Part shown: positions 3,826 to 52,276 of the stretch, piece by piece | Numbering within the stretch: position 1 is the first letter of the stretch | Layout of the letters: the number at the start of each line of letters is the position of its first letter | Virus record (IMG/VR): IMGVR_UViG_3300037465_000034 | DNA from: a virus | DNA: 61,742 nucleotides | Reading direction: 5' to 3' (one strand) | Notes under the pieces: model-generated | Database searches by the model: none | Told to the model about the DNA's origin: nothing | Seen by the model: the letters and a program-made list of their open reading frames with translations, nothing else | Program-made: the position numbers and the translations under genes

Positions 3826-3826
3826 C

Positions 3827-27058: not shown

Positions 27059-27059
27059 C

Positions 27060-29403: not shown

Positions 29404-29412
29404 GAGGCGGCG

Positions 29413-29961
29413 ATGGCAGCCACACCGAAGCAAAAGCCGACCGCGCAGGCCGCGCAACCGGCCGGGGCGCCAGCCGCGCCAGAGCGCGGGCATGGAAAGC
29501 CAGAGGACAACCCCAAGCGCGAGCAGGGCAAGCAGGTCTGGCGGCACCTGGTCGCCGCCGCGATGAAGATCATCTACAGCGAGCAGGTCACAGCGGCGAT
29601 CCTCCAAGTTCTGCAGCAAAGCGCCGACAACCCGCCGCACGGCGTTGCGATGGCGACGAAGTTCGTCATGGAAGCGATTGCCAGGCAGCTCCGCGGCATC
29701 GACCCGCGCGTGGTCGTATCGGCCGCTCCGGCGATCGCCTCGATGATCTTCGAGCTGGGCAACAAGGCCGGAGTGTTCAAGGCCGACGCGACGATGCTCG
29801 CGCCGACGTTGAAGATTATCGCTCAGTCGATGCAGAGCGGGCCTGGCCATCAGGCTGCGCCAGAAGCGCCCCAGGCCGGCGCACCGCCGGCTGGTGCGCC
29901 TCCGCAAGCGCCCGGCGGATTGGTGGGGGGCGCGATGCAGCAACCGATGATGGGAGGCTGA
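29413..29961 (+). CDS. Internal virion protein candidate
   Basis: ORF track. SD taggagg upstream. Confidence 0.55.
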   Translation: MAATPKQKPTAQAAQPAGAPAAPERGHGKPEDNPKREQGKQVWRHLVAAAMKIIYSEQVTAAILQVLQQSADNPPHGVAMATKFVMEAIARQLRGIDPRVVVSAAPAIASMIFELGNKAGVFKADATMLAPTLKIIAQSMQSGPGHQAAPEAPQAGAPPAGAPPQAPGGLVGGAMQQPMMGG

Positions 29962-29962
29962 C

Positions 29963-31018: not shown

Positions 31019-34000
31019 ATGGGCGCGTTCGACGACTACCTGAACGGGAAGCCGCCGGCCGAGCCGGCGAAGCCTTCTGGCGCCTTCGATCAGATGGTCG
31101 CTGCCGATTCGCAGCGCGGCGACTTCTGGCGCGCGGTCAAGCAGACCTATCAGCAGGTTCCCGAGCTGGCCTACGGCATCACCGCGCTCGGCGCCTCGGC
31201 GATCGAGACTGCGATGGGCGAGGGCGGGCTTGCCACTTCGGCCAAGAATTGGTCGGTCGGCAAGATGCTGGAATGGAAGCACGCCATTCAGGAAACCTCT
31301 AAGGAGAGCGACGACATCAATTTCTCCTGGGAGCGCGCGCGCGAGGGCGATTACGGCGCCCTCGTCGATTGGCTGCAATACGGCGTCGGCTACGGTGTGG
31401 GGCAGGCCAGCCAGATCCTCGCCACCGCAGGGGTTGGGGCCATCGCCGGCAAGATCGGTCTGCGCGCCGCTGTGGACAGGTTCGCGGCTCCCTTGGTCGA
31501 GAAGGAGGCCGAGAGGCTGGTCATGGCCTCGATGGCCGAGAAGGGCGGCAAGGCCACCGCTGAGCAGATCGCCAAGGCGGCAGCCCTGCCGGAAGTCAGG
31601 AAAGCTGCGGTCGGCAGGCTTGCGAGTCAGGCTGGGGCGATCGGTGCCACCGGCGCCTACGCCTTCGGCATGGAGGGTGGTGAGATCGGCGGCGACGTCG
31701 CCGAAAGCAGTGTTTCACGTGGAACACAGCTCACCGGGTCCGAGCTCGCCAAGGCGTTCGGGGCCACCATGCTGGCAGGCACGGTCGAGTTCGCAGGCGA
31801 CCTGCTGGGCCTTGGGGCCATGATGGGCAAGATCCCGGTCGGCAGGAGGCTTGCCGAGGCCACCGGGTTGAAGGGTCGCGCCGCGCGCGGGATCGTTGGT
31901 GGCGCGATGGTTGCGCCGGCCGAGGGGGCGCAGGAGTTCTTTCAGACCGGCATCGAGGAGTGGGGCAAGGGCAAAGAGGAAAGCATGTTGCCCTGGGAAC
32001 AATCCCCAGAAAATCAGCGCCAGGCGTTGAATGCAGCCGCGCTAGGCTTCGTAGCCGGCGGGGTAATGGGTGGGGGTGGTGGCGTCCTGCGGGCCGCAGA
32101 AAAGGCCCGTGGCAGGCCGTTCGTGCCAGCACCAGCCAGGACTGCAGGCGAGACGATTGCGCCGATTCTGGATGCTCCTGACGTGCAGTCGGCCGTGGAT
32201 GCAGCCACGGCCGCCTACGAAAGCGATGTTGGCGCCTCGATCATCGCGCAGGTTCAGGACACCGAGTCGATTCAGGACGGCATCACGCTGGCGGTGGGCG
32301 CGGCGCGCGACGCCGCGGAGCGCGCCGCAACCTCCGGCTTCGCCTACCGCCAGCACCTTGAGCAGCAGGCAGACGCCGCCATAGCCGAGAGCCTCGGCCT
32401 CGAGGCGCGCCAGGCAGCCGAGGAAGCCGCAAGGCCCAAGACGGCCATGCAGCTCGCGCTGGAACGCGCCTTCCAGGTCGCCGCGGAACGTCCGGCCAAG
32501 GCTGCTGCTGCGCCCACCGCTGGCAGGCCAAGCACCAGCGAGGCGAAAGCCTTCGGGCGGCAGATCAAGGAATTGAGCGACGAGGAGCTGGCCGACGTCG
32601 CCGAGCGGCACACCATGTCCGCGCAGCGCGAGGCGGCGCGCGCCGAGTTGACGCACCGCACCGCGGTGCTGATGGCGCGCATCCCCGAGGAAAAGCCCCC
32701 GGAGAAGCAAGCGGCGCCGCCTGTGAGGATCTACGGGCAGTTGCCCGAGGACATGAGCCTCACGCAGTTGCAGAGTGCCGCGCAGCTCCTGCCCAACGGC
32801 AAGCCAAAGAACGTGGCGTTCGCCTATCAAGCTGCTGCGGCACAACGCGAGCTGGCGTTCCGCGAGAAGGTCGGCCAGATCTTCGAGGGCAAGACGGTGG
32901 AGCAGATGTCGGTGGCCGCGCTCGATCGCCTGATCGCCAACCCGACCGCCAAGCGCCAGTTGAAGCTGTTCGCGCAGGCCGAGAAGCGCCGCCGCGCCAA
33001 GGCCGACGCCGACATTCGCCGCCGCATCGCCAACCCCGGCATCGCCGATGAGCTGAAGGCATTCGCCGCTGAAGCCGGATGGGCTCAGAAGGGCGGGTTC
33101 TTGGTGAGGTCCAAGCGCAGCGAGCGCGCGGGCGACGAAACCGTGACCCGCACGCAATGGATCCCGCGGGCAGAGTGGTGGAGAGGCCGCCCTGTCGCCG
33201 AGAACGAGGACTTCTACCGGAAGGCCGTTGCCGACGCCATAGCAGGCAAGCCGTTGGGCGAGAAGCAGAAGCGGGTGGTGAATTTCCTTCTCGGCATGGC
33301 CGAGGAGGTCGGCAGGATGCTGGCCGAAGCCGATGTCGATGGAGTCGTGGACCAGGGGCTGGGGTTCAGCGTGGAAGATGACATGACCCATGAGTCCGTA
33401 GACTTGGCGATCGAGCGCGCCGATCGGCATTTCACCGAGGTCAAAGGACAGATCACGAAGGAGGAAGCCGATGCAATCGAAGACAGGCTCTTTGGGGCCG
33501 ACACGCGACCTGCCGTTCGGCGTGAGGAAGCTCGCGCGGCAGCTATTCCGGCGGAAGCTCGAACAGAACGGGTTGTTGAAGGACAGCGACGCGAACCTGC
33601 CGCCGCAGCCCCGGCAGAGCGAGGCCCGCCTGCCGCAGAAGCCGGCGCAGAACGAGGCAAGATCGTTGTCGCCGGAAAGCCAGCGGCCGGAGGAGTGAGC
33701 GGCGAGCCTGCATCGGATGAGCGCATCGCCGCCGCCAAGCGCAACCTGCGGAAGGCCTTGGACGGCAAACAGGCGTGGGAAGTTCCGCTCAAGAAGTGGG
33801 CGGCAGCGCACGACGCCTATCTCGAGGAGGCGTTCGGCGCCGGTCCAGAGGTTCCAAGGGAAAACGACGAAGAGATCGCCACGCAGCACCTTGAGCACAT
33901 CGAAAGCGCGATCGAGAACGCGCACAAGCCGCCGCGCGCCGCGCTGGCGAGCCACAAGGACATCGACGCCAAGGAGTTCCCGAGGGCGGCCGCGCTCTGG

Positions 34001-37000
34001 AATGAGTATTTCGGCCAACCAAAAGAGAAGGGGGCTGCAGATGCCAGCGCAATACGAAAGGATCAGGGACAGCTATTTGCGGGCGGGCAAGCCGAAGAAA
34101 GAGGCGAAGCGGCTCGCGGCGATGACCTACAACGCGCACCGGCCGAAGGGGGCGAAGCCCGTGGGGCCGCACAGCGACAAGAAGGGGCTCGTCCAGAAGG
34201 CGATGAAGTAGGGTCGAAGGCATGGTATGCCGCCTTACGTCGTGCTGCTCACCAAAATGAGTCGAGGCCCAAAGGCAAGCCCAGCTTGAGCAACAACCTG
34301 GTGCTGGCCTTGATGAGCTTCGCCGACGCAGATAGCAGATGGGCCGAACGCTTCTCATCTGGAAGGACTGACGATGAGTTGAGGCTTGACATCGGCCACG
34401 AGTTCGGCATGCAGGGCGGCGGTTATTCCCAGGCGCACAAGGGCGGCGAAAATCCCAAGTTTTATTTCAGCGCCGAGGGACACATACCAGTAGCGCACGG
34501 CAAGCCTACGCTGCAAGGCAAGGCTCTGATCGACGCGGTGCGGGCATTGTTCAAGATCCCGAAGCGCAAGGCGCAGGCAGCGCAGGTCGAGCGCCGCGTC
34601 GAGCCTACGCCAGAACAACAGGCGATGCTCGATTACGAGCGTGAGTTCGAGGAGGACATTGCCGGTCGCCGCGAGATCGCGCCTGATGATGCCGGGCTCG
34701 ATGAGCAGGCCATGCAGCGCGAGGAGGCAGAGGCAGAGGCGCAGCCGACCAAGCCCACTCCGAAAGCCGAGTCGCGGATCGAGCGCATGCGCGCGGTGGA
34801 TTCCGCCTTGATGGAAGGCGACATCAATTCCGTGGTCGAGTGGATGCGCGACGGCTTCGACGCCACGATCGTCATGGACGCGATTCGCGGCCTTGCCGAG
34901 ACGACGGCCTGGCCGGAGCGGCTGGCCTATGTAGCGAACAGGGCGGCAGAAGTGCTGCGGAGCGCCGATGAGAATGGCGTCGCCGATCTCGCCGAGCGCA
35001 TCCTCAAGCGCGGCTGGACCTACACGACGCACCAGGTCAAGAAGGGCGCGAAGCCTGATGACGTTGACGCCTGGGAGGCGCACCTAGCGCGCCGCAAGGC
35101 ACTGGCAGCGCGCCGCGCCGACATCGACGGGCTGCTCGAGCGCCGCGCCATGAAGCTCGTCGAGGACCGGCTCTACGAGAAGCGCATCAAGCCCGGCGAC
35201 ATGGTTACCTTCAACGCCACAGTCTACGACCGCTACGGCGAAGCGCGCGAGCGCACGACCGCGGAGCTTCGCAAGGGCGTCGGCGGCTATGCGATGAGCG
35301 GCATCGACACCGGCGGCGGCATCCTCAACATCGGCACCGAGGATGTTAGATACCTGACGAAGGCGAGCGAGACGGATCTCGCCGCGCTGCGCGAGCGCGA
35401 GCGGCAGGCATTTATGGAGCAGGACACAGGCGCGGCTCTCGAACGCCTGCGCGCGCCGGAGGGCGTCGGGATCCTGAAAGGCACCGAGTCGGCTGGCACT
35501 CCTGCCGCCCAGCAGCGGTGGATGACGTCGGAAGCTCTCGGCTCCGTCGATGGCATCGTTCTCGGCTACGCCGATGTTCAAGGCACGGATCGCGTCATCT
35601 TCCAGACCGACGATGGCAACCGCTACCTACTGGCACCGCACAGCCTGTTCCCGGTGGAAACAGGTGGCGAGCAGGTCATCCCGCAGCCCTACGCTTCCGG
35701 CATGAGCCGACGACGCGACATGAGGGCCGCGATCGAAAGCGCGGTCGGCGTCGGGGTGGCGGCTGCCTCGGAGAAGCCTGCTCTCGGCGCGAATGTTGAT
35801 GAAACCGTCCTGGCTCGCTACCTGCTCGCCGAGGCGCGCGTCGGCAACCGGATGATGGGGCCGCTCATCATCGACCGGATCTATGGGCCGGAGCATGGCG
35901 AGATGCGCCAGCGCATCATGCAGCGGCTCACCGGCGAGAATGTGTCCAAGGAGAAGTCTGGCGTCGGCGTGGTCAAGGCAGCCCTGTTCAAGCACTTCGG
36001 CATCCAGGGGGATTCGGAGCGCGCGCGCGAGGAGGCGCTGCAGGAAACTCTGGAACGCCTGGCTTACGGCGGGAAGACCGAGCGCGAGGCGCTGGATGCG
36101 GGCTGGGCGAATCTGAGCGCGGAAGAGCGCGCCCAGGTCGAGCGCGAGGTCGGCAGGCACCGCTTCGATGAGAACGCAGTCACCTGGATGCAGGGCGCCC
36201 GCGAGGGCGTCCAGAAGTGGCTGGCATCGGTCAGCGAGTCGGTCAGGGCGGCCTTCCGCAAGTTCGTCGCCTTTCTCGCCGCCGTTGCAGTGGCGCTCAA
36301 CGTCAGCACCGTGCAGGAGGCCGACGCTGTAGCGAGGCCCGCCGCGCAGCAGCAGGAAGTGACGGTGCGCGAGCTGGTCGAAAGACCGAAGGCCGACTTC
36401 GGCTACGCGCGGCCCGGCTGGGCCGCTCGCCTCACGGCCAACTGGATCATGGCAAGCGGCGCTCACGAAGGTCGCAGCTTCCTCGTCGCCGACAAGAACG
36501 CCGGCACGCTCTACGCTTTCGGCTCAGACGGCAAGCTGATCGAGCAGACTGCGGCGCTCTACGGCGAATCGAAGGCAGACGAGTTGACACCAGAGCAGTG
36601 GAAGGTGTCGGTGGACAAGATGCGGACCGCCGACAAGGTGACGCCTGCAGGGCGCTGGACGGTCGGCCTGCAGCCAGATTCCGAGCGCGGCTGGACGATG
36701 GACTTCGAGGGCGGCGAGGGGCTGGCGATCCACGCGGTCTACCTCGGCAACCCGAAAGAGACGCGCGCGCAGCGGCTTGTCACCGAGACGGCCGAGGACA
36801 ACTTCATCACCTACGGCTGCATCAACGTGCCGAAGGACTACTTCGAGCGCGTGCTCAAGCCCAACTTCGGCGACAAGCACGGGCTTTTCATCATTCCGCA
36901 CCAGGAGGCCAATACCGAGCGGGTGCTGGGGATCGTGGCCGCCGACATGGCGCCGCAGCTCGTCGAGCGCAAGGTGACGCTGCCTGCCGGCGCGCCGAAG

Positions 37001-40000: not shown

Positions 40001-43000
40001 GACACGGTGCAGCTCGTCGATCCACAGCCATTCCCTGGCGCGGTGCGCGGCGGGCAGGCCTACCAGCACTCGATCTACCGCGACGGCAGGCCGGTGGGCG
40101 TTGTGTCGCTGGTGTGGGAGCAGGGGCGCGTCAAGTCGCTCTTGCACATCCTCACCTACGACGAGGAGCAGGGCCGCGGGGTGGCGGAAGCGGTGGTGCG
40201 TGGCATCCTCATGCACAACCGCGGCGGGCTGCACATCATGTCGATTCAGGACACGGCGCGCGGCTTTTGGGAGAAAATGGGGACTGAGTATCTGGAGACC
40301 GAGGGGACAGAACCCGATGGCTACATCACACCGGAGAGTTACCGTGCAGCGCGGGGTGCTGAGGGAGATCAGGAGGCGCGACGCAGAGCGCGCGAAGCGG
40401 GAACGCGCCCAGCCGCCGTCGGAGAAGGCGCGCCTCGACCTGGCGACGCTCGATTCTCTCCGGCAGACGAAGCACTAGATGTAGACCGCGCGCTCAACGA
40501 CATCCGCCGTGCCGGCACCACAAGATATGACGAGCAGGCACAAAGCGACCTCGCCGTCCTTGAGCGCGAGCTGGGGCCGTTCAGTTCGACGGGTCGGGTT
40601 CCTCGCGGTCTTTACAGACCTGTTCGCCTGCCTGACGATTCATACCTTCAGGAGCTCGCCGGGACCTTCGGAAGGCGAGTCCTCGGGATCAGCTTCGACG
40701 AATCCAGAGCACCACCGAATTCCCCGCTTCTGACGGATTGGCAGGGCGTCAGCGTCGGCGCCGATTCCGGCATCATCGGCATCCGCTACGGCGCGAGGCG
40801 CCCGTCGATCGCGCTCACCATGCACGAACTGTCGCATGAGATTGAGCGCGAGGATCCCGAGACGTTCAACGAGCTGGTCGAGGCGCTGCGGCCATATATC
40901 CGCCAGGAGGAATACGGCCGGCGCTTTGCTGCCGTATATCGCGGGATGCCGGATGCCCGCATTCGCGGCGAATTTGTCGCGGAGGTGATGAGCGACGGCG
41001 CGATGTATCCCAAGTTTTGGGATTACGTCGGCCAATACAGCCCGGAGCTTCTGAGAAAGCTGGTCGGCGCCGTGCGCCGGCTGCTCGATCGCGTGGCGCG
41101 CGGGCTGGGCATGGGCTACAAGTGGAAGACCGCGCAATACGTCACCGACTTCGACGCCGTGATGAACGAGGCGGCGCGCGCCCTCGCCAAGTATCACGAC
41201 AAGCGCGCTCTCGCCGATATGCAGCGCGCCGAAGAGCGGCGGCATCCTGCCTTCCAGCGCGACGACCTGCCTGCGATGGACCTGGACGCGGACCGCCCGT
41301 TCCAGACCGTGGACAGAATCGAGGACATCGAGTGGAAGGAGATGATGGATTACTTCTCGGCGAACGTGAACGAGCGCCGGGTGCTGATCTACAAGCCGAT
41401 GCTGCCCGAGGATCTGACGTTATCGAAGGCGCACCGTGGTGGCGGAAGAACATGGTGGCACGCCGTCGTGGCGGGCAGCAGCAAGCACCTGAGAAACGGC
41501 GGCAAGGCTGACAGCTTCGAGGATGCCGCGCGCATCGCCTGGGAAGCATTGACACTGCTACCGCCGGTTACTGACACGGTAGAGACCCGCTCTGCGATGT
41601 ATAGCAAGCGCATGGTGGCGAAAATGGGTGGGCGCCGTGGCAAGCAATACGGCTATTACCACCGCAACACCGGCCGCGAGTCCGAATACATCGAGGGCGA
41701 AGAGCTGGTCGATGGCGTGGAGCCTAGCGAAGGCGACATCGAGCGCGGGCCAGACTTCTCGCGCGAAGGCACGGCAGCGCCAGTCTTCTACTACGCGCTG
41801 GACCGCCAGCTCGTCGCCTCTCCCATGAAGGCCGGCCCGGCGAAAGCCTGGCGCGACTACATCAAGGGATTGGTAGCGAAGGGTCTTGTCAAGCAGGACG
41901 AGGTTAATTGGAGCGGCATCGACGACCTGCTGCAAATCGACACCGAAGGGCATCGCATCCAGCGCGAAGAGCTGCTGTTCTACCTGCGCCAGATGAACAA
42001 GGAGATCGGGGATGTCGTCGCCGGCGAAGCCATTGACGCAGAATTCGAGGGTGGTGGTGCGCCAAGCGCCGCCCACAGGGCCAGCAATAAGGTGAATGAG
42101 CTGCGAGTTCAGCTCGATGCGCTGGGCTATGACGTAGAGTTCGAGGCGAACGGCCCGGACGCCGGGATGCCGCTTTATGTGCTCCGGCGCTCGGATAGGT
42201 CGGCGTTCTCGTTCGGTGACAGGTTCGCGCTCGGAGACGCGCTGCACGTTGATGAGCTGCCAGACGGCCCGCGTGAACTCGCCGAAGATATTTATCAGGA
42301 GGCGCAAAAAGCCTTGGAGGACGAGGACGGAATCGTCGCCCAACACCAGCAATCGTTGCAACCAAGGTATGTGAAGACGCGCTACGAGACCTACGGCCTG
42401 CCGGGATCTGAGCCGGGCACCTACCGCGAGATCCTGATGACGCTGCCATCGTTCACGATGGAAGGCGTCGCTGGCCGCGTCGTGTTCGAGGGGCGCTGGC
42501 GGGAAGCTGTCGTCGATGAGTTCATGAGCGAGATCGCCGAAGAGCATCCAGAGGTGTATTTGGCGGCCATCGAGGAAGATGGCGTTCGGAACATCGTCGA
42601 GTTCAGTGGGGCAGGAGAAACAGCGCGCGACAGCATCGACAATTTCGCCAGGATGAATAGTGGCGATGTCACCTACACGAAGGGCGCTGGCCCGGTGCCG
42701 ATGTTCACTTCAGCCCACTGGCAGCAAGGCAACGTCGTGGCGCACATCCGCGCCGATGTCGTGAAGGCCGAGGATGGCAAGAGCTATCTGCGCGTGATCG
42801 AGATTCAGTCCGATTGGGCTCAGCGCGCGCGCAAAGTCAGAAAGCAAGAGGTCGTCCGCGTCGCCACTGAAAAAGGCATCAGCCGCGAGGAAGCCGACAA
42901 GCTGGTGGCGAGGGACTTCGGATTCTCCGAGCCCCGAGCGATCAGGGACGCTTCTGACAAGGTGATCGTCACCGAGCGCCACTACCGCGATCTCGTCAAG

Positions 43001-46000
43001 AAAATGCTCGCTCAGATCACCGAGCACGACTACTTCGGCTTCGAGGATGAACATGGGGCTTTGGAGGACATCACCTACAATCCGATCACCTGGGAGCAGA
43101 GTTGGCAGACTCAGCGTAAAGTCGTCCCCGCTGAGTTCCGTCGCCTCGCCAAGGAATATCTTGAAGCCTACGATGCGTGGCGGCGGGCGACGCGCGAACA
43201 GGTTGCGATCTCGCCGTATCCTAAGGCGCCGTTCGTGGACAAGACAGAGGCGTGGGTGTCGCTCGCGGTCAAGCGCGCGCTGCGCTACGCCGCCGACAAG
43301 GGGCTCGCAGGCGTGGTCTTCGCCAGCGGCAAGCAGAATCTTTCCCTCTACGAAGGCATCCGACGGCGGGTCAAGCGCATCGAGTGGCAGCCGGAGAAGA
43401 GGCAGCTCAACATCGTGTTCAAGCCAACCCGCGACGGGCATGGTCTGCAAAACGCGGAGCCCGACCGCCTGGTAGAAGCTGTCGGCCCCAAGGAGTTGCC
43501 GGAATACGTTGGCGAGAACATCGCCAAGCAACTGCTCGAGCCAACACCATCCGCAGGCACGGATGCCTTCAACGTGACCAAGAAGGATGGTTCGGTGTGG
43601 CGCGTTGTCGAGGGCGAGAAGCTTCGTGTCGGCGGCGAAGGGCTAGTAGCTTTCTACGACAAGCTGCTGCCAGCCGTCGCATCCGGCGTCGTGAGGAAAC
43701 TCGGCGGCAAGCTCTCCAAGGTGACGACGCAAAAGAAAGAAGGATCGCCGCTCGCCAAAAAAGAGATGACCGATACGGTGGTCGCCTATATGGCAGGGGA
43801 CATCAGCGCAGAGGAATTCATCGACAACACCGGCTTGAACATGACGGTGAGCGACGTCGAGGCGGACGAGGACATGAATGGAGCATGGGACAGGCACGAC
43901 GCGCGAACGAGGACAGTCGCCAAAACGATAGCCAATCGCCTCACGCGGCAACACGGCCCCGCGCGCTCAACGACTTACAACGCGGTCGAGCTCACGCCGG
44001 AGATGCGCGACAAGGCGCTGGGCGGCCTGCCGGCGTTCAGCCCATACTACACGCCAGATCTAAAGATGCGCCTGGCCAAGGGTAGAGAATCGCCAGATGA
44101 GTGGGTGAAAGGGTTGCAGAAAAAATACCCGGTGACCTGGCGCGAAGTCGGCGAGCGCGAGCTGAATTCACTTGAGCGCGAGATCGGGCTGCGCCCGATC
44201 CCGTCCGAGCATGAACCAGGCCACGGCCCTGCGCTCGAGGACAGGTATGCGTCGTTCAGGTGGGTGACGGATGCGCGCTACGCGCTACGAAACGCCGGGG
44301 AACCGGAGCCTCCGGCCGGCATCGAGCGGCCGTTGTTCAGCCGCGAGGAGCGCGAGCCGCGCGAGGCCGCGCCAGTGGCGGCTGGGATTCGCAAGAAGTT
44401 CGAGACGGCCGGAAATTTTGACAAGACGACCATCAGGCAATACGACGACTACGTTGCCGGTGCGCCAGAGCTGGCGTCGGCGCAAGCCGGGCCGATCACC
44501 GTTCGCGTGATGCGTGACACCAATGGCATCTGGTTCGGGCCAGGCTATTTCATACTCACGCACCGCGACTTTCCGCAATACCCGGTGCCGGCGCACAGGT
44601 GGATGGACGAGTGGGAACCCTATATGCAGTCCGTCGAGGGCGTCTCCCGGGCCGACTACGCGAAACTGCCGCAGGAGGAGCGCGCGGCGATCGAGGCCAG
44701 ACGCCAGGCGAGGACCTACGCAGAGAAGCAATTCTTCGGCGATCTGGCCGAGTTCTACTGGAACGACAGGTGGCAAAAGCGCCTCGACGAGAAGTTCAAG
44801 AAGCGCACACAAGGAGTCGCCGGCCACGATTGGGTCAAGGCCCGCAGCGCCGCCGAGAACGACTACTGGAAGGCGCTGGTCTACGACGAGCTGGGCCAGC
44901 GCGCGTTCACGCCGCACGACTACCCGCCGGCCGACAAGCCGAATCATCCAGTGCGGAAGATCGTCCACGGCATCAAGGACAACATGGAGTCCGCGATTCG
45001 CGAGGCTCGCGCCATGATCGCGGAGAAAGGCTGGAAGTCCGTCGCCGAGGCCTTCTCCTGGTTTAGCGATGATCGCTCTCACGGCGGCGAGGACGTAGCC
45101 GAGGCCGCGCGCGCTGTGGTCAAGCAGTTCGGCGGCACCGAAAGCACGGCGGACCCCTTCGATTTCGTGACGCGAGTCCTGACTGACGCTGAGGCCGAGC
45201 CTGTTCTGAGCGCCTACACCGAGGCCGAGCTGCGCGCCAAGGAGCGCCGCGAGAAGGAAGGCAAGCCGGTGCCGACGCCGACCACGGGACCGGAGCCGCC
45301 ACTGCTGACGACGCCAGAAGGCGTGGCGCCCGCGCGCTTTGGAGAGGTGCCGAAGAGCCCGACCGGTCAGGGCAGCCTGTTCAGCCGCGAGACGAGGCGC
45401 GCCCGGCGCCGTGGATCCGATGTGCGATTCAGCCCGATGGAGGCGATCGGTGCGAGCGGTGTGCGCGGCGACCACGAGGACGGCCTGGCGCGTCGCGGCA
45501 GCAATTTCGTGCGCGACCTGCTGCACAGCTCGGGCAAGTTGTCCTGGTGGTCCAGAACCGTCGGCACTCCGCAGCACGTTGCCGAGACGAACGCCGAGTT
45601 CCGGCCCGTGTTCGACGAGGGGCAAGCCTTCATTCACGACGTCAGCCGCTTCGCCAACGAGGCCGCTGACGCCGCGAACGGGGATCCGAACGACCCGAAC
45701 GCCATGCACATCCTCCCTCGCATCGAGCAGTTCATGGACTTCCTCAAGAAGCACGCCAGCAACGAGGACCAGGAGCGGGTCATGGGCGCGCTGATGACGG
45801 GAACGCTGTGGGGCGGCGGCGACCCGCTGCAGGGCCGTATCTGGACCGACGAGGAGCTGCGCGCCGGCAGGGAGGTCGATGGCGACATCCGCCTGCCGGC
45901 CTTCACGCCGATGACGGAGGCGCAGATCAAGCTCTACCGCCAGGCGCTCAACTCGACGCGCGTGAGCTTGGACAACACCGCGAAGTCGATGATCGCGCGC

Positions 46001-48322
46001 CACGCAAGGCAGCACGACATCGGCTTTGACCGCGACATGAGCCTTGAGGACGTTGCCGAGTCCGTGAGGCAGACGGCCGACAACACCATCACCGACCTGT
46101 CCGTCGATCTGGAAACGATCGCCGACGAGGGCTACGTCAATGAGATGGCGCAGGAAGCCTACGAGCAGGCCGGCGAAGGGGCGCCGGGCCGGCGCGCGGC
46201 GGCGCGCGTCAGCGCGAAGCTCGCCGAGGACGCCGAGAAGCTGCGCGAGCAGATCGCGCAGCTCGAGCAGTTGAAGAAGGATGTGACAGACATCGAGGAA
46301 AAGACCACCGGCTTGAAGAACAGCGGCTACTTCCCGGCGATGCGGTTCGGGCAATACGCCGTCCAAGTGCTGCGGCCACGGCTGGGCGAAGAGCCAGAAC
46401 AGCTCTACTTTTCCATGTTCGATACGCAGTTGAAGGCGAACCTCGCCAAGCGCGAGTTGCGCCGCGAGTTCGGGCCGGACGTTGACATCGTTGACGGCAT
46501 GATTTCTTTGCAGCAGTTCAGGTTATTCAGGGGCCTGAACCTGGAAATGATCGAAGCCTTCGCCGACAACATCGTGGACGAGAGCGGCGGCCGGCTCTCG
46601 AAGGACCCGGTGGTGCAGGGCTTCATCAAGGCCGCGGCGAGCGAACGCTCGAACCTCAAGCGCCATCTGCATCGCAAGGGCGTGGCTGGCTACTCGCGCG
46701 ACCTGCCCAGGGTGCTCGCGGCTTTCACGGTGTCGTCGGCGCGCGCGGCGGCGAGCGGCTACCACTCGGCCGACATGGCGCGCCTGGCGCAGCGGATCAG
46801 GACCGGAGATGTGAAGGACTACGCCATCGACCTGGTGCGCTACCTGCAGGATCCCGAGGAGGAGGCGCACTGGCTGCGGGCGTTCCTGTTCGTGCAGTAT
46901 CTAGGCGGCTCGATCGCGCACGGCATGGTGAACATGACCCAGCCGGCGCTGGTGACGGTCCCCTACCTGAGTCAATTCACGACGCCGAAGGATGCTGCGG
47001 CGAAGGTGTCGAGCGCCGCAGCGACGAAGGAGTCGGAGCTCACCGGCTCGTTGAAGGACGACTTCACCAGGGCGAAGGGCGAGGGGGTCGTTGCACCGCA
47101 GGAGATCCACCAGCTCCGCGCCGAGGCGGGCGGCCTCCCCGTCGGCAGCAGCCTGATCGCCCGGAAGCTCTCGTTCCTGTGGGGCTCGATCTATTCGATC
47201 ACCGAGCAGTTCAATCGCAAGACGACCTTCATCGCCGCGCATCGCATCGCGCAGGACATGAGCAGTGCTGATCTGGCGAAGGCTGGTGCCCGCAGCGCCT
47301 ACGAGTTCGCGGTGAACGCGGTCAACCGGACGCAGTTTATCTACAACAAGGGCAACCGTCCGGCGTGGGCGCGCGGCCCAATCGGCGCGACGGTGTTCAC
47401 CTTCAAGCAGTTCTCGATCAGCTATCTCGAGCTGGCGAAACGAATCTATAGGAATGACAAGAAGGCCTTCGCGCTGATGATGCTGCTCTTGATCGCAGCC
47501 GCTGGCCTCGAGGGGTTGCCCTTCGCCGAGGACATCGAGGACATCGTGGACACCGTGGGCCAGTGGATGGGCTACGCGACCAACTCCAAGAAAAAGCTCC
47601 GCGAGTGGGCCGCTGCCTCGGTTGGCATGGATCTCGCCCAGGTCGCCATGAAGGGCGTGAGCGGGCTGCCCTTCATGCCGGTGGACATCAGCGTCAGGAT
47701 GGGCCTGCAGAACCTCATTCCAGGCACCGCGGCGCTCAAGCCTAGCGAGAAGAGCAAGGTGCGCGACGTATTGGAGATGATGGGGCCGGCCGGGCAGCTC
47801 GTTCCTGCCGAGGGCACGATGGCTGGCCGCGCCATCGAGCGCCTGGCGAAGGGCGATGTGCTGGGGGCGGTGCGCGAGGGCGCCCCGGTCGCCGTGCAGA
47901 ACGTCGTGAAGGGCGCGCAGATGATGGACAGTGGCTACGCCACCGACTACGAGGGGAAGCGCACCGTGGGCGTAAGCCCAGGCGAGGCCGCGTTCAAGAT
48001 GGTTGGCCTCAACCCAGCAAGCGTGGCGCGCGAGGGCGAGAAGATGCGCCTGGCGAAGTCAGACATGGACCTGCAACGCCGCATGGAGGACGAGATCGCG
48101 GAGAAGTGGGCGCGCGGCGTCGCGGACGGCGACCGCGAGGCCGTCAGGGATGCCATGAAGAAACTCAACCGCTGGAACGTGGACAACCCCGAGTTGCGTG
48201 TCCGCATCACCATGCAGCAGATCCAGCAGCGCGTCAGGGACATCAAGCGCACACGCGCCGAGCGCACCATCAAGCACGCGCCGCCGGAGATCCGGCCAGG
48301 CGTGAGAGATGCGCTGCGGTGA
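31019..48322 (+). CDS. Giant multi-domain ('polyvalent') virion/ejection protein, 5767 codons in one open frame
   Basis: Uninterrupted ORF with strong codon bias over most of its length. Contains Gly-zipper/TM segments and YkuD-like, Cys-rich, ART-like, GNAT-like, HExxH and PLxRFG-like modules (listed separately). Follows the internal virion protein genes. Confidence 0.8.
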   Translation: MGAFDDYLNGKPPAEPAKPSGAFDQMVAADSQRGDFWRAVKQTYQQVPELAYGITALGASAIETAMGEGGLATSAKNWSVGKMLEWKHAIQETSKESDDINFSWERAREGDYGALVDWLQYGVGYGVGQASQILATAGVGAIAGKIGLRAAVDRFAAPLVEKEAERLVMASMAEKGGKATAEQIAKAAALPEVRKAAVGRLASQAGAIGATGAYAFGMEGGEIGGDVAESSVSRGTQLTGSELAKAFGATMLAGTVEFAGDLLGLGAMMGKIPVGRRLAEATGLKGRAARGIVGGAMVAPAEGAQEFFQTGIEEWGKGKEESMLPWEQSPENQRQALNAAALGFVAGGVMGGGGGVLRAAEKARGRPFVPAPARTAGETIAPILDAPDVQSAVDAATAAYESDVGASIIAQVQDTESIQDGITLAVGAARDAAERAATSGFAYRQHLEQQADAAIAESLGLEARQAAEEAARPKTAMQLALERAFQVAAERPAKAAAAPTAGRPSTSEAKAFGRQIKELSDEELADVAERHTMSAQREAARAELTHRTAVLMARIPEEKPPEKQAAPPVRIYGQLPEDMSLTQLQSAAQLLPNGKPKNVAFAYQAAAAQRELAFREKVGQIFEGKTVEQMSVAALDRLIANPTAKRQLKLFAQAEKRRRAKADADIRRRIANPGIADELKAFAAEAGWAQKGGFLVRSKRSERAGDETVTRTQWIPRAEWWRGRPVAENEDFYRKAVADAIAGKPLGEKQKRVVNFLLGMAEEVGRMLAEADVDGVVDQGLGFSVEDDMTHESVDLAIERADRHFTEVKGQITKEEADAIEDRLFGADTRPAVRREEARAAAIPAEARTERVVEGQRREPAAAAPAERGPPAAEAGAERGKIVVAGKPAAGGVSGEPASDERIAAAKRNLRKALDGKQAWEVPLKKWAAAHDAYLEEAFGAGPEVPRENDEEIATQHLEHIESAIENAHKPPRAALASHKDIDAKEFPRAAALWNEYFGQPKEKGAADASAIRKDQGQLFAGGQAEERGEAARGDDLQRAPAEGGEARGAAQRQEGARPEGDEVGSKAWYAALRRAAHQNESRPKGKPSLSNNLVLALMSFADADSRWAERFSSGRTDDELRLDIGHEFGMQGGGYSQAHKGGENPKFYFSAEGHIPVAHGKPTLQGKALIDAVRALFKIPKRKAQAAQVERRVEPTPEQQAMLDYEREFEEDIAGRREIAPDDAGLDEQAMQREEAEAEAQPTKPTPKAESRIERMRAVDSALMEGDINSVVEWMRDGFDATIVMDAIRGLAETTAWPERLAYVANRAAEVLRSADENGVADLAERILKRGWTYTTHQVKKGAKPDDVDAWEAHLARRKALAARRADIDGLLERRAMKLVEDRLYEKRIKPGDMVTFNATVYDRYGEARERTTAELRKGVGGYAMSGIDTGGGILNIGTEDVRYLTKASETDLAALRERERQAFMEQDTGAALERLRAPEGVGILKGTESAGTPAAQQRWMTSEALGSVDGIVLGYADVQGTDRVIFQTDDGNRYLLAPHSLFPVETGGEQVIPQPYASGMSRRRDMRAAIESAVGVGVAAASEKPALGANVDETVLARYLLAEARVGNRMMGPLIIDRIYGPEHGEMRQRIMQRLTGENVSKEKSGVGVVKAALFKHFGIQGDSERAREEALQETLERLAYGGKTEREALDAGWANLSAEERAQVEREVGRHRFDENAVTWMQGAREGVQKWLASVSESVRAAFRKFVAFLAAVAVALNVSTVQEADAVARPAAQQQEVTVRELVERPKADFGYARPGWAARLTANWIMASGAHEGRSFLVADKNAGTLYAFGSDGKLIEQTAALYGESKADELTPEQWKVSVDKMRTADKVTPAGRWTVGLQPDSERGWTMDFEGGEGLAIHAVYLGNPKETRAQRLVTETAEDNFITYGCINVPKDYFERVLKPNFGDKHGLFIIPHQEANTERVLGIVAADMAPQLVERKVTLPAGAPKRERPSGRRRSKGKFRSRDLDALGAKERAAAERQIERRGADAARLAQQLELHQGTPWAKQTIQGLIVRAAIDEYVAGRTPDFASMLDSPHTTNAKAAAKAGVDGIWRYLMQRGLIGEAGKPANSVNSSFANCTPSADCARFCYAATGNYTAPNPIVKSELTSWAVENNPQRAGDQIAHEYKTTAEFYVKKALRLFDKGDGTMNWIPVIQRLNAHGIRVQVFSKNPDFLRAVPKMNLRLLSADKSNLGMVRANPDLPVAFVYSDASQIAFLNEIRDRVQVILPIKLGSRLLSKAELEELPAWTRPYQCPVNNGHRKIGRQPNQWTCGRCDYRGGVGCFYGTPSAKALEAIDRPAEYDSETRSLVEELTHASRQLRPTERRKLLGEIDRLISAIRAGVDIGTAGGSARENAAAVQGDDRGLGRGVYPITFHPSRVRETRPEADLARFEGEGGRLGAEREVSEDQGEAPPGAREPAAEGGDVYSVAALQGAPGEAAQASDDQLKLTVAEGGTAARFSLEDGAAESVGARLLGSVVTKTGEPWLRPGDEKRVYHGTSRSFNNFEAQYGLPWFYFSEKHEMAEKFAASDEPIPPTPDKPERPADRKVTIATKDGPANVDAWDVGVPGLVVTYQVKSGLYSVTHEASGYAAGGASEYFVAVMEAARRLGRAGKKLGVDWRRGAEFLDALPRDEKRKLAVAARIVEPEQPDPIAAMFGYKGRAGIGVGSNIRPAYLAIKKPIDLRGLRGGTHQTPRQLLEALASHGINLTIRDMPFSHRKVYQMLNSPSVAEKIMAVAQERGYDGLIFNDEFDARLKAVSYIVFSPSQVIPAFVPRFSRNERGSELERRGARVAAMVKALEKRVDRAYRRGDPRAEDWDAILSELKAIEEGIAEALQEGSVEDVGEPSADDVGEPAGIEENLVRLYWEYLQGGLVRGGEQETIAAMRDALFAPEGIVGSTKMQPRTDATDEEVLAAAKDAFEAWAARQARNAGAYYTTDAKGQPLLHLDTVQLVDPQPFPGAVRGGQAYQHSIYRDGRPVGVVSLVWEQGRVKSLLHILTYDEEQGRGVAEAVVRGILMHNRGGLHIMSIQDTARGFWEKMGTEYLETEGTEPDGYITPESYRAARGAEGDQEARRRAREAGTRPAAVGEGAPRPGDARFSPADEALDVDRALNDIRRAGTTRYDEQAQSDLAVLERELGPFSSTGRVPRGLYRPVRLPDDSYLQELAGTFGRRVLGISFDESRAPPNSPLLTDWQGVSVGADSGIIGIRYGARRPSIALTMHELSHEIEREDPETFNELVEALRPYIRQEEYGRRFAAVYRGMPDARIRGEFVAEVMSDGAMYPKFWDYVGQYSPELLRKLVGAVRRLLDRVARGLGMGYKWKTAQYVTDFDAVMNEAARALAKYHDKRALADMQRAEERRHPAFQRDDLPAMDLDADRPFQTVDRIEDIEWKEMMDYFSANVNERRVLIYKPMLPEDLTLSKAHRGGGRTWWHAVVAGSSKHLRNGGKADSFEDAARIAWEALTLLPPVTDTVETRSAMYSKRMVAKMGGRRGKQYGYYHRNTGRESEYIEGEELVDGVEPSEGDIERGPDFSREGTAAPVFYYALDRQLVASPMKAGPAKAWRDYIKGLVAKGLVKQDEVNWSGIDDLLQIDTEGHRIQREELLFYLRQMNKEIGDVVAGEAIDAEFEGGGAPSAAHRASNKVNELRVQLDALGYDVEFEANGPDAGMPLYVLRRSDRSAFSFGDRFALGDALHVDELPDGPRELAEDIYQEAQKALEDEDGIVAQHQQSLQPRYVKTRYETYGLPGSEPGTYREILMTLPSFTMEGVAGRVVFEGRWREAVVDEFMSEIAEEHPEVYLAAIEEDGVRNIVEFSGAGETARDSIDNFARMNSGDVTYTKGAGPVPMFTSAHWQQGNVVAHIRADVVKAEDGKSYLRVIEIQSDWAQRARKVRKQEVVRVATEKGISREEADKLVARDFGFSEPRAIRDASDKVIVTERHYRDLVKKMLAQITEHDYFGFEDEHGALEDITYNPITWEQSWQTQRKVVPAEFRRLAKEYLEAYDAWRRATREQVAISPYPKAPFVDKTEAWVSLAVKRALRYAADKGLAGVVFASGKQNLSLYEGIRRRVKRIEWQPEKRQLNIVFKPTRDGHGLQNAEPDRLVEAVGPKELPEYVGENIAKQLLEPTPSAGTDAFNVTKKDGSVWRVVEGEKLRVGGEGLVAFYDKLLPAVASGVVRKLGGKLSKVTTQKKEGSPLAKKEMTDTVVAYMAGDISAEEFIDNTGLNMTVSDVEADEDMNGAWDRHDARTRTVAKTIANRLTRQHGPARSTTYNAVELTPEMRDKALGGLPAFSPYYTPDLKMRLAKGRESPDEWVKGLQKKYPVTWREVGERELNSLEREIGLRPIPSEHEPGHGPALEDRYASFRWVTDARYALRNAGEPEPPAGIERPLFSREEREPREAAPVAAGIRKKFETAGNFDKTTIRQYDDYVAGAPELASAQAGPITVRVMRDTNGIWFGPGYFILTHRDFPQYPVPAHRWMDEWEPYMQSVEGVSRADYAKLPQEERAAIEARRQARTYAEKQFFGDLAEFYWNDRWQKRLDEKFKKRTQGVAGHDWVKARSAAENDYWKALVYDELGQRAFTPHDYPPADKPNHPVRKIVHGIKDNMESAIREARAMIAEKGWKSVAEAFSWFSDDRSHGGEDVAEAARAVVKQFGGTESTADPFDFVTRVLTDAEAEPVLSAYTEAELRAKERREKEGKPVPTPTTGPEPPLLTTPEGVAPARFGEVPKSPTGQGSLFSRETRRARRRGSDVRFSPMEAIGASGVRGDHEDGLARRGSNFVRDLLHSSGKLSWWSRTVGTPQHVAETNAEFRPVFDEGQAFIHDVSRFANEAADAANGDPNDPNAMHILPRIEQFMDFLKKHASNEDQERVMGALMTGTLWGGGDPLQGRIWTDEELRAGREVDGDIRLPAFTPMTEAQIKLYRQALNSTRVSLDNTAKSMIARHARQHDIGFDRDMSLEDVAESVRQTADNTITDLSVDLETIADEGYVNEMAQEAYEQAGEGAPGRRAAARVSAKLAEDAEKLREQIAQLEQLKKDVTDIEEKTTGLKNSGYFPAMRFGQYAVQVLRPRLGEEPEQLYFSMFDTQLKANLAKRELRREFGPDVDIVDGMISLQQFRLFRGLNLEMIEAFADNIVDESGGRLSKDPVVQGFIKAAASERSNLKRHLHRKGVAGYSRDLPRVLAAFTVSSARAAASGYHSADMARLAQRIRTGDVKDYAIDLVRYLQDPEEEAHWLRAFLFVQYLGGSIAHGMVNMTQPALVTVPYLSQFTTPKDAAAKVSSAAATKESELTGSLKDDFTRAKGEGVVAPQEIHQLRAEAGGLPVGSSLIARKLSFLWGSIYSITEQFNRKTTFIAAHRIAQDMSSADLAKAGARSAYEFAVNAVNRTQFIYNKGNRPAWARGPIGATVFTFKQFSISYLELAKRIYRNDKKAFALMMLLLIAAAGLEGLPFAEDIEDIVDTVGQWMGYATNSKKKLREWAAASVGMDLAQVAMKGVSGLPFMPVDISVRMGLQNLIPGTAALKPSEKSKVRDVLEMMGPAGQLVPAEGTMAGRAIERLAKGDVLGAVREGAPVAVQNVVKGAQMMDSGYATDYEGKRTVGVSPGEAAFKMVGLNPASVAREGEKMRLAKSDMDLQRRMEDEIAEKWARGVADGDREAVRDAMKKLNRWNVDNPELRVRITMQQIQQRVRDIKRTRAERTIKHAPPEIRPGVRDALR
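33471..33698 (+). CDS. Embedded +1-frame small ORF s1 (75 aa) inside the giant gene
   Basis: AAGGAGG, 6 nt, then ATG. G/C-ending codons dominate in this frame while the giant frame loses its bias over exactly this interval. Confidence 0.55.
   Translation: MQSKTGSLGPTRDLPFGVRKLARQLFRRKLEQNGLLKDSDANLPPQPRQSEARLPQKPAQNEARSLSPESQRPEE
34041..34211 (+). CDS. Embedded +1-frame small ORF s2 (56 aa, basic helical)
   Basis: AAGGGGG, 6 nt, then ATG. Product MPAQYERIRDSYLRAGKPKKEAKRLAAMTYNAHRPKGAKPVGPHSDKKGLVQKAMK. Codon bias switches frame here. Confidence 0.6.
   Translation: MPAQYERIRDSYLRAGKPKKEAKRLAAMTYNAHRPKGAKPVGPHSDKKGLVQKAMK
36475..36900 (+). other. YkuD-type L,D-transpeptidase-like domain of the giant protein
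   Basis: FLVADKNAGTLYAFGSDGKLI ... TPAGRWTV ... GLAIHAVY ... ITYGCINVPKDYF (His ... Gly-Cys). Preceded by the TM helix FRKFVAFLAAVAVALNV. Confidence 0.6.
37379..38015 (+). other. Cys-rich domain of the giant protein (possibly GP88-family-like)
   Basis: NCTPSADCARFCYAATGNY ... CPVNNGHRKIGRQPNQWTCGRCDYRGGVGCFYG. Family name is from memory only. Confidence 0.35.
38100..38354 (+). CDS. Embedded +1-frame ORF s3 (84 aa) inside the giant gene
   Basis: GAGGAG, 7 nt, then ATG, with a stop codon just upstream in this frame. Protein-like helical product (MRADSSDRQNVENYLERSIASYLQYGLALTSEQRAAVRAKMLRRFKEMIEGW...). Locally lower G+C. The giant frame has weak bias here. Confidence 0.6.
   Translation: MRADSSDRQNVENYLERSIASYLQYGLALTSEQRAAVRAKMLRRFKEMIEGWDEVSIRSLSIPPEFVKLAPKRILRGLRERADD
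38364..38504 (+). CDS. Embedded +1-frame ORF s3b (46 aa, very basic)
   Basis: GTG 9 nt after the s3 stop, same frame. Nearly all codons end in G/C. Product VRYPKIKEKRLLARANRPPKVGTFTPSPRYRVRRAKQRRPVTTNSS. Confidence 0.4.
   Translation: MRYPKIKEKRLLARANRPPKVGTFTPSPRYRVRRAKQRRPVTTNSS
38636..39465 (+). other. ADP-ribosyltransferase-like (ART-PolyVal-type) module of the giant protein
   Basis: RVYHGTSRSFNNFEAQYGLPWFYFSEKHEMAEKFA ... RPAYLAIKKPIDL ... ERGYDGLIFNDEFDARLKAVSYIVFSPSQV. Assignment is from memory. Confidence 0.45.
40060..40285 (+). other. GNAT-like module of the giant protein
   Basis: VGVVSLVWEQGRVKSLLHILTYDEEQGRGVAEAVVRGILMHNRGGLHIMSIQDTARGFWEKMG. Confidence 0.45.
40317..40478 (+). 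CDS. Embedded +1-frame ORF s4 (53 aa)
   Basis: GAGGGG, about 10 nt, then ATG. Product MATSHRRVTVQRGVLREIRRRDAERAKRERAQPPSEKARLDLATLDSLRQTKH. The giant frame is a weak-bias Arg/Ala/Glu/Gly linker here. Confidence 0.5.
   Translation: MATSHRRVTVQRGVLREIRRRDAERAKRERAQPPSEKARLDLATLDSLRQTKH
40823..40837 (+). other. HExxH zinc-metallopeptidase motif (HELSH) in the giant protein
   Basis: ..IALTMHELSHEIEREDPETF.. read directly. Confidence 0.5.
46331..46351 (+). other. PLxRFG-like motif (FPAMRFG) opening the C-terminal membrane-associated module of the giant protein
   Basis: NSGYFPAMRFGQYAV. Downstream TM segment AFALMMLLLIAAAGLEGLPF. Family name is from memory. Confidence 0.45.
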
Positions 48323-52016: not shown

Positions 52017-52276
52017 TCGATCCCCACCTTGAGGGCGTGTTCGTGAATGTCGGCGGCATCCTTCCTGCACAGCAGCACCGCGTTCTCGATCGCTCCGTGC
52101 TTTCTGTGGGTCTGAACTGCGTCGATCAGCAGCATTCCGACCTGATCGTGTTGATACCATGTCAGGACGCAGTTGGGTTCCTCCGTGACGTAAATAACAG
52201 TGGCGCCGGTTTCCTCGCGTTGATTTACCGGGGTGATGGTTTTGCGCCACAAAATGTTGGTCAACTCCATGGTCAT
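52010..52276 (-). CDS. Hypothetical protein
   Basis: ATGA overlap with the RecT stop. MTMELTNILWRKTITPVNQ... Confidence 0.55.
   Translation of the reverse strand: MTMELTNILWRKTITPVNQREETGATVIYVTEEPNCVLTWYQHDQVGMLLIDAVQTHRKHGAIENAVLLCRKDAADIHEHALKVGIEC

Follow-up and report, generated by a model that had tools for sequence, protein, structure and literature searches.

In phage T7, gp16 is a capsid-core protein of low copy number, which is ejected before the DNA and forms a channel through the envelope of the cell. Hardies et al. 2016 placed gp60 of Pseudomonas phage H66 in an extended family of this protein (IVP-D, for internal virion protein D) by comparison of hidden Markov models (HMMs; E=8e-19 after subgroup joining), and phiRIO-1 gp37 and, by its C-terminal domain, N4 gp50 are counted among its members as well (PMC4819975). 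Polyvalent proteins, described by Iyer, Burroughs, Anand, de Souza, and Aravind in 2017, carry many unrelated effector domains in one chain; they occur in phages, in the late or virion gene block, and in conjugative elements, beside T4SS genes, and are presumed to enter the recipient cell along with the DNA (PMC5512222). A 2198-aa putative polyvalent protein of coliphage PTXU04 was identified as a fitness gene in a CRISPRi-ART screen, and plating efficiency fell strongly when it was knocked down (PMC11879866). Here we analyzed a giant gene at positions 31019..48322 (+) of the IMG/VR virus record IMGVR_UViG_3300037465_000034 (61,742 nt; this whole stretch is referred to as the window). We consider that the product of the gene is quite probably an ejection protein, i.e., an internal virion protein, from a phage of the podovirus type, which belongs to the polyvalent class and carries effector cargo on a C-terminal tail.

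The gene was a single uninterrupted open reading frame (ORF) of 5767 codons plus a stop, and its ATG start lay 3 nt past the TGA of the upstream gene (31013-31015). Its frame contained one stop, the terminal one, and the remaining five frames over the same span contained 36-182 stops. At the base composition of the window, a stop is expected every ~37 codons, and the chance expectation for an open run of this length was log10 E ~ -63. The G+C contents at the three codon positions were 0.68/0.47/0.80 and constant across all twelve 1.5-kb chunks, so the full length of the gene looks coding. Furthermore, a 32.6-kb sequence (L003) from the Logan assembly of run SRR12687342, obtained with a separate assembly pipeline, was 100% identical to window 21829-54405 and called the identical 5767-aa gene. 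The two ends of the window formed an exact direct overlap of 127 nt (1-127 and 61616-61742), indicating that the window is a complete genome, circularly closed or terminally redundant, of ~61,615 bp. The G+C content of this genome was 65%, and the giant gene occupied 28.1% of it. These results were consistent with an earlier reading made from the sequence alone (the sequence-only reading), in which one 5767-codon frame was said to take 28 percent of the genome. Long ORFs were also observed in other frames within the gene (32042-34018 (-), 658 aa; 44285-46366 (-), 693 aa; 36217-37584 (+), 455 aa), and one antisense frame contained just 36 stops in 17.3 kb; such frames are the usual by-product of a G+C-rich gene and no evidence for further genes.

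The C-terminal module (the tail) scored 420.7 bits (cutoff 100) with the NCBIfam model NF032893, named 'PLxRFG domain-containing protein' or 'tail-700', in which aa 5103-5755 covered positions 2-677 of the 681, and 556 bits with phrog_11358, confirming the PLxRFG-like module that had been recognized by eye. The signature reads FPAMRFG in this protein (aa 5105-5111, nt 46331-46351), with Ala replacing Leu. As to the transmembrane (TM) helices that had also been proposed for the tail, one strong segment was found (aa 5484-5502, nt 47468-47524), but the other segments were only weak. In 39 of the 41 relatives that have the tail, it was located at the extreme C-terminus. When 50,697 deposited phage genomes were searched, the tail was the sole part of the giant protein that was matched, with ~33% identity over ~945 aa to giant proteins of F116-like Pseudomonas phages and a few others. 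When aa 1-3700 were compared with deposited phages by tblastn, no match was obtained. The same tail is variously annotated in GenBank (hits H30-H69) as 'DNA methyltransferase', 'DarB-like antirestriction protein', 'putative internal virion polymerase', 'structural protein', and 'hypothetical protein'. These names follow the cargo of one relative and are misleading for others.

We then compared an HMM of the tail family, built from 36 tails, with internal virion proteins. The HMM aligned with aa 2829-3779 of H66 gp60, that is, with its C-terminus, at 1186 bits, and H66 gp60 carries the GenBank note 'verified by mass spectrometry as part of the virion'. Against T7 gp16, the HMM gave 17.1 bits over collinear stretches (aa 511-731 and 1097-1148), and against phiRIO-1 gp37, 9.3 bits (aa 1384-1507). 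The maxima obtained with 500 local shuffles per target were 3.8 and 2.8 bits, respectively, and reversed sequences and unrelated helical sequences, including the N-terminal part of the giant protein itself, scored negative. Because the virion-verified H66 gp60 has the same tail, which is also weakly similar to gp16, we find it best to interpret the giant protein as an ejection protein with a cargo of effectors. In the mechanism that we propose, the ~945-residue tail would act as the delivery module and, as a core protein of the gp16 type, would exit the capsid before the DNA and enter the envelope, and the ~4800 residues ahead of it would be the cargo carried into the cell; packaging, ejection, the site at which each domain acts, and any processing are what we infer.

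At least six distinct modules were recognized ahead of the tail, namely YkuD-like, GP88-like, ART-PolyVal, GNAT, HExxH, and core modules (Table 1). The sequence-only reading had placed a TM helix in front of a YkuD-type domain. The helix was readily predicted from hydropathy and was kept in P0002, a 2393-aa protein of an uncultured phage. The YkuD-like segment scored 22.1 bits with PF03734 when isolated and 16.8-17.1 bits in long pieces, short of the cutoff of 23.4, and its counterpart in P0002 was likewise under the cutoff (21.6 bits). Proteins of the YkuD family contain a catalytic His followed by a Cys in an (S/T)xGC(I/V)(R/N) motif. This order was observed here, with a putative catalytic His in LAIHAVY (aa 1902-1908) followed by Cys1934 in TYGCINV. 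The His and GCINVP were conserved in P0002, the sole clear homologue, with which the TM and YkuD-like module (aa 1686-2011) shared 46% identity. The YkuD claim was thus upheld by the conserved catalytic-type residues but not by the Pfam score, and we regard the domain as probably, though not securely, YkuD-like. Anchored in the membrane, it probably acts on peptidoglycan, in the slot that relatives and T7 gp16 occupy with SLT, glucosaminidase, or lysozyme-like domains.

The GP88-like module contained seven Cys, three in a Cx5Cx3C arrangement (C2125/C2131/C2135) followed by C2300, C2318, C2321, and C2329. Just 8 Cys are present in the 5767 residues, these seven and the YkuD-type Cys1934, all of them at predicted functional sites. 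The module was 38-47% identical to its counterparts in P0001, P0003, P0039, and P0096, in which all seven Cys were invariant, and the last four resembled the L37Ae zinc ribbon (E=7e-4). The cutoff of PF17338 was not reached by this protein (Table 1) or by the homologues P0001 and P0003; the Cys-rich domain noted by eye was thus borne out by its invariant residues, but its identity as GP88 is near threshold and not secure. In an AlphaFold2 (AF2) model (predicted template-modelling score 0.64), a repeated beta/alpha core was seen, and Foldseek gave only weak, partial, TIM-barrel-like matches. A radical-S-adenosylmethionine reading of the Cx5Cx3C cluster was considered and not supported by these matches. 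In the proposed mechanism, the GP88-like module would be a Cys/metal-binding part of the cargo.

The ART-like module was clearly identified as an ART-PolyVal ADP-ribosyltransferase, with 49 bits to PF18760 against a cutoff of 31.2 in two stretches split by an insertion of ~150 aa. Its motifs VYHGT (2541-2545), FYFS (2561-2564), and GYDG (2788-2791) aligned with those of six other ART-PolyVal domains; a paper on Poorviridae merely repeats the Pfam description of this family. The GNAT-like module passed PF00583 marginally (21.2 bits against 20.7). It was 51% identical to P0009, and its QGRGVA loop (aa 3051-3056) was conserved in P0009 and P0041, so that this module of the sequence-only reading was also retained, by a narrow margin. 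One GNAT family of polyvalent proteins typically neighbours an ART domain (Iyer et al. 2017, PMC5512222). The ADP-ribosyltransferase and the adjacent GNAT module probably modify host proteins at the onset of infection. The HExxH site (HELSH) proved to be invariant across 17 homologues. His3269, Glu3270, His3273, and Glu3318 were all invariant, and a Glu located 45 residues past HExxH is the gluzincin pattern. No Pfam family was found when 10 members of this module were scanned, and no PDB match was found by sequence; single members gave hints to M48 and eCIS_core at E=0.04-0.06. The role of this gluzincin-like module may be to divide the giant chain into functional fragments or to act against proteins of the host.

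Table 1. Positions of modules in the giant protein and of neighbouring structural genes in the window
Feature	Window position	Strand	Residues	Basis
N-terminal Gly/Ala-rich module	31019..32053	+	1-345	Composition, hydropathy
Shared module inside charged region	32981..33718	+	~655-900	12 relatives
Predicted TM helix	36254..36304	+	1746-1762	Kyte-Doolittle 1.76 over 19 aa
Probable YkuD-like domain (L,D-transpeptidase fold)	36479..36847	+	1821-1943	Pfam PF03734, near cutoff
GP88-like Cys-rich module	37118..38272	+	2034-2418	Pfam PF17338, 23.2 bits vs cutoff 24.4
ART-PolyVal ADP-ribosyltransferase	38606..39478	+	~2530-2820	Pfam PF18760
GNAT acetyltransferase-like module	39962..40342	+	2982-3108	Pfam PF00583
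Gluzincin-like HExxH module	40514..41254	+	3166-3412	Conserved residues
Core module (~770 aa)	41741..44053	+	~3575-4345	Exhaustive HMMER search, 120-sequence conservation
Segment without detected relatives	44054..45487	+	~4346-4823	Uncovered by top 150 relatives, no Pfam match
C-terminal PLxRFG module, proposed IVP-D ejection domain	45488..48319	+	4824-5767	
Large terminase	4894-6267	Same as giant gene		Terminase_3, 127 bits
Portal	10965-13232	Same as giant gene		Best deposited match 42% identity, uncultured Caudoviricetes record
Major head protein	14697-15749	Same as giant gene, upstream of it		

More than 1500 residues behind the HExxH site had been described as holding no recognizable motif. 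This proved not to be the case, as the stretch holds the core module, with sharply conserved motifs and relatives in ~5000 protein clusters. Relatives were collected with HMMER by searching 1.84 billion representative proteins exhaustively, aa 3581-4780 being the query, which yielded 4957 clusters at E<=1e-3 and 2821 at E<=1e-10. The relatives were 545-6796 aa in length (median ~3000 aa) and included the identical 5767-aa sequence, and their coverage piled up on aa 3575-4345. By contrast, a k-mer-indexed search of aa 3401-4830 had returned no matches, which was a false negative in view of the exhaustive search. In 120 aligned segments, near-invariant motifs were YS.L, W..G.K..E..W.G, Y.LPGG..NYRE.LLTLP, S.H....N.LAH.R, E.QSDW.Q, P.APFV..T..W..LA.KR, GGEGM..FYD..P....K.GG, and F.IT..MR, with variable lineage-specific inserts between them. 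In the giant protein, we located Y.LPG...YRE.L.TLP (3792-3810), S.H....N..AH.R (3898-3911), E.QSDW.Q (3928-3935), P.APFV..T..W (4068-4079), and GGEG..FYD..P (4205-4218). The invariant polar residues suggest catalysis or a conserved interaction.

The core module was present in at least 468 IMG/VR viral loci (including L004-L083 and L153-L232), in genome bins of many bacterial phyla, in a few isolate chromosomes, and, as a fragment only, on four Pseudomonas megaplasmids. It was absent from the deposited phage genomes searched (50,697), and no Pfam, NCBIfam, or PHROG model covered it. In BFVD, a library of predicted viral structures, it matched just unnamed giant proteins of uncultured phages. 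An AF2 model of the module was patchy (mean predicted local distance difference test score 58; 75-93 in the conserved cores). No PDB match was obtained by sequence profile or by Foldseek with this model, which returned nothing under E=0.5, and PDB searches with the whole giant protein likewise gave no useful match. A GNAT reading of the core was considered on the basis of ~80-column Foldseek matches, but their probability of ~0.1 was too weak for use. In the proposed mechanism, this widespread module would also be part of the cargo. In the adjoining segment without detected relatives, a second HExxH-like string, HEPGH, was observed at aa 4398-4402 (44210-44224).

The N-terminal part of the protein had been described as a Gly-zipper/TM region. 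Its Gly/Ala-rich composition (Gly 12-18%, Ala 18-20%) agreed with this description, but the Gly-zipper-like segments (aa 126-151, 251-274, and 339-357) were only weakly hydrophobic. The module was common to 7 giant proteins with 28-44% identity and lay within the first ~490 residues in each. The long charged regions described behind it were confirmed by composition, aa 346-1685 containing 26-37% DEKR. A module inside this region (aa ~655-900) was found at varied positions in 12 relatives and had no Pfam match, and no relatives were detected for its flanks (aa 346-650 and 900-1685). In total, ~2100 residues of the giant protein were without a detected relative or assignment (aa 346-654, 901-1685, 2419-2529, 2821-2981, 3413-3574, and 4346-4823).

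These observations lead us to a tentative idea, which we hold to be possible rather than probable. The core may represent an enzyme or a machine part, as yet undescribed, on which the giant ejection and polyvalent proteins of phages depend and, linked to this, a whole ejectosome may be contained in one chain, consisting of the N-terminal Gly-zipper membrane module, a helical spacer, the membrane-anchored wall enzyme, and the IVP-D tail. Such a chain may replace the separate gp14/gp15/gp16-type proteins, which were unrecognizable upstream. When the HMMs of the N-terminal and aa 655-900 modules and aa 346-1700 as a single sequence were compared with T7 gp13-15, RIO-1 gp36/38/39, H66 gp59, and aa 1-2800 of H66 gp60, no convincing similarity was seen, the highest score being 6 bits.

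The modules were each common to different subsets of giant proteins and were found at varied positions, except for the N-terminal module, which was always near the N-terminus, and the tail, which came last. The proteins that shared them piecemeal bore ART-PolyVal, LPD22/23, MuF_C, InPase, RadC, or SLT. The closest relatives in IMG/VR (L084 10001-12703 and L085 10001-12772) had giant frames of at least 4234 and 3995 aa, with tail identities of 56% and 45%, respectively. Upstream of the tail, they shared nothing with the giant protein, save that one of them had 36 residues of the ART motif. The sharing of just the tail indicates that the cargo turns over rapidly, which would fit a cargo that is interchangeable on a fixed delivery module. 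No other window ORF matched these two loci, which, as compared, begin inside or just before their own giant ORFs. Muralytic domains of other kinds were found in relatives: SLT at the N-terminus of P0096, glucosaminidase in P0021, and LT_GEWL in a BFVD match. They stand where the giant protein has its putative YkuD-like domain, a pattern that is expected for exchangeable cargo on a fixed delivery module.

Among individual relatives, P0096 (4944 aa; like P0002, an uncultured-phage protein from metagenome protein collections) shared the N-terminal (44%) and GP88-like (47%) modules, the core, ART-PolyVal, and the PLxRFG tail, but it starts with the SLT transglycosylase and also has RadC and InPase. 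P0002 shared the TM and YkuD-like module, ART-PolyVal, and the tail. Neither has the full module set or order of the giant protein. The largest relative, P0021 (6796 aa; L152 10001-30391), combined glucosaminidase, ART-PolyVal, the core, and the PLxRFG tail; it was encoded on a 96.6-kb contig and adjoined genes for KorA, KorB/ParB, ParA, KfrA, and SSB, that is, a plasmid-like or phage-plasmid setting. Since 9 of the 153 collected relatives exceeded 5000 aa, with lengths up to 5875 and 6796 aa, the earlier description of the protein as extreme in size was overstated.

The giant gene closes the structural block of the genome. The terminase, portal, and major head protein genes (Table 1) and tail-fibre-like genes lie upstream on the same strand, and the gene strand switches soon downstream. 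This position matches those of the H66 gp60 gene, which is followed by holin, endolysin, and spanin genes, and of a giant gene of the Pseudoalteromonas phage vB_PalP_Y7 (WPJ30526), both of which close the structural block. Right upstream of the giant gene, four to five genes (27045-31015) had been labeled as internal virion protein genes, a label that was not borne out, as none of them had a Pfam or PHROG match. Several other features of the genome were observed. A gene for a 2OG-Fe(II) oxygenase-like protein lies inside the structural block (22260-22856), and a protein with a methyltransferase-like C-terminal part is encoded just ahead of the portal gene (9368-10756). The minus-strand early block contains a RecT recombinase gene (L003 30445-31491, window ~52273-53319). 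A 24-nt tandem unit, GCGCCGAGTCGCGCACGTTGAGCA, was found in two arrays (235-586, 14.9 copies; 60718-61129, 17.2 copies) on the two sides of the genome junction. They lie within the minus-strand ORFs 38-700 and 60521-61273, for which no Pfam match was found, and could be octapeptide-repeat coding sequence or iterons. A 30-nt near-perfect repeat, TGTAACGCATGGTAATGCGGTGTCACCAAA, was present in 3.3 copies at 54376-54474, close to the gene-strand switch, and looks like an operator or iteron array. A search of GTDB genomes for prophage relatives of the tail, which could point to a host, found none.

Compared with H66 gp60 (YP_009638975, 3787 aa) and the giants of the F116 group (Hollowayvirus), the protein has the same C-terminal module of ~950 aa and is likewise a giant single ORF at the end of the structural block of a 60-65 kb podovirus-type genome. 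However, nothing is shared upstream of the tail, and the protein is 1980 aa longer. Where H66 gp60 has a site resembling a SAM (S-adenosylmethionine) methylase (PMC4819975), the protein described here has the YkuD-like, GP88-like, ART, GNAT, HExxH, and core modules instead. The vB_PalP_Y7 protein WPJ30526 ('DarB-like antirestriction protein', 4675 aa) has the same tail with 31% identity and takes up 24% of the 57.7-kb genome of an isolated phage, against 28% here. Its tblastn match was confined to the tail, and its label implies methylase/helicase cargo, which is absent here.

The likeness to T7 gp16/IVP-D consists in being the last large gene of the structural block, in the weak, control-passing tail similarity, and in a putative cell-wall-directed domain within the chain; its cytoplasm-bound cargo would resemble that of N4 gp50. 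By contrast, the protein is ~4.4 times as long as gp16 (1318 aa), and whereas gp16 has an N-terminal lytic transglycosylase, a putative YkuD-like domain stands here behind a TM helix. Unlike in T7, no gp14/gp15 partners were recognizable upstream, and similarity to N4 gp50 was undetectable, including in a comparison with its C-terminal 2491 aa.

The features shared with polyvalent proteins were ART-PolyVal with a neighbouring GNAT, a metallopeptidase-type module, the context of virion genes, and mosaic module sharing. The sequence-only reading had assigned the protein to this class, and the above-cutoff ART-PolyVal match, the ART-GNAT pairing, the HExxH module, the PLxRFG tail, and the piecemeal sharing of modules support the assignment. 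The protein differs from described members in having neither MuF nor Pfam LPD domains and in its core without a Pfam model. No match to LPD, one of the families that the sequence-only reading had put forward, or to MPTase-PolyVal was found in the Pfam scan. The word 'YkuD' does not occur in the text of the paper on polyvalent proteins (PMC5512222). The protein is thus of an already known kind, a polyvalent protein, of large size though exceeded by others of this class. More precisely, we read it as an ejection protein of the IVP-D family and of the F116/H66 type whose cargo is different and larger. Its novelty consists in the way the modules are combined and in a putative YkuD-like, wall-directed domain that follows a membrane helix, to which the discovery of the core module is added.

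Several points weigh against an ejection protein with effector cargo. The virion evidence, from GenBank and the literature, belongs to H66 gp60, and we infer its extension to the 5767-aa protein. The similarity to T7 gp16 is weak, with an hhalign probability of 7% (P=0.005 against the T7 family), as is that to RIO-1 gp37 (probability 33%, P=5e-4), and the tail HMM gave no significant match to N4 gp50. Both the tail and the gp16 families are helical, which invites false matches, though the controls were clean. That the tail corresponds to the IVP-D region of H66 gp60 is suggested by the tail HMM and by the wording of the phiC725A paper. The YkuD-like domain scored under the Pfam cutoff, and a two-sequence profile reached no solved L,D-transpeptidase in the PDB (E<=1), which together leave its assignment probable and not secure. 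MuF, the usual capsid-targeting domain of phage polyvalent proteins, was not found in the Pfam scan, and the upstream neighbours had no recognizable homology to IVP-A, -B, or -C. The occurrence of P0021 amid plasmid-type genes means that the tail may not be exclusive to virions. Finally, a 630-kDa chain would have to be unfolded or cut for passage through a podovirus tail channel.

This last point bears on a variant of the preferred reading, in which the chain is a polyprotein that is cut by the HExxH module or by a host or phage protease before or during packaging, the fragments being the functional forms. We regard this as a possibility of some weight, well short of an even chance. A conserved gluzincin-like module stands in mid-chain, and long low-confidence, lineage-specific inserts separate the conserved blocks. 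Iyer et al. propose autoproteolysis by metallopeptidase domains and cite P1 DdrB as being cleaved before packaging (PMC5512222), and in F116, two genes take the place of the single one for H66 gp60 (PMC4819975), indicating that the chain can work in pieces. However, N4 gp50 (3500 aa) is packaged unprocessed despite its metallopeptidase domain (PMC5512222), cleavage sites are not predictable in the 5767-aa chain, and the HExxH module belongs to no characterized peptidase family.

A late protein that is not part of the virion, i.e., a cytoplasmic or secreted multi-enzyme or toxin that is made late or by a prophage and serves, for example, in superinfection exclusion or host killing, appears improbable. 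It would be in line with the lack of MuF, with the plasmid-like neighbourhood of the largest relative, and with virion evidence that is that of H66 gp60. However, the gene ends the structural block, and its tail, which is C-terminal in 39/41 relatives, has a homologue in the C-terminus of H66 gp60, for which the annotation states verification in the virion. In addition, the muralytic domains of relatives make sense for entry from outside. We give even less credence to an antirestriction protein of the DarB type or to a virion RNA polymerase, names that are used in GenBank annotations of tail homologues. No methyltransferase, SNF2/helicase, or RNA polymerase domain was found in the 5767 aa with Pfam, NCBIfam, or PHROGs, consistent with the earlier statement that T7/N4-type RNA polymerase motifs were lacking, and the tail alone, not the enzymatic middle part, is common to those records. 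An assembly chimera or a chance open frame, for which the long spurious frames expected at 65% G+C and the antisense frames of 658 and 693 aa might be cited, is already close to refuted by the negligible chance expectation, the uniform codon-position G+C, the identical second assembly, the conserved modules, which are all in frame and collinear, and the frames of 3995, at least 4234, 4944, and 6796 aa in relatives.

With the gene read as an ejection protein carrying effector cargo, the enzyme set (YkuD-like, ART and GNAT, and GP88-like) can be cloned and tested module by module, and the ~770-aa core, very common and unmodelled, presents domain curators and structural biologists with a concrete target. 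The case links the literatures on polyvalent proteins and on podovirus IVP-D (T7 gp16), which are usually kept apart, and a fixed tail with exchangeable cargo offers a way to read many genes that are mislabelled 'methyltransferase', 'DarB-like', or 'virion polymerase'. Injected proteins act before phage gene expression and so decide whether the infection survives host defences; the cost of 28% of the genome for one such protein implies strong selection for a broad first-strike toolkit.

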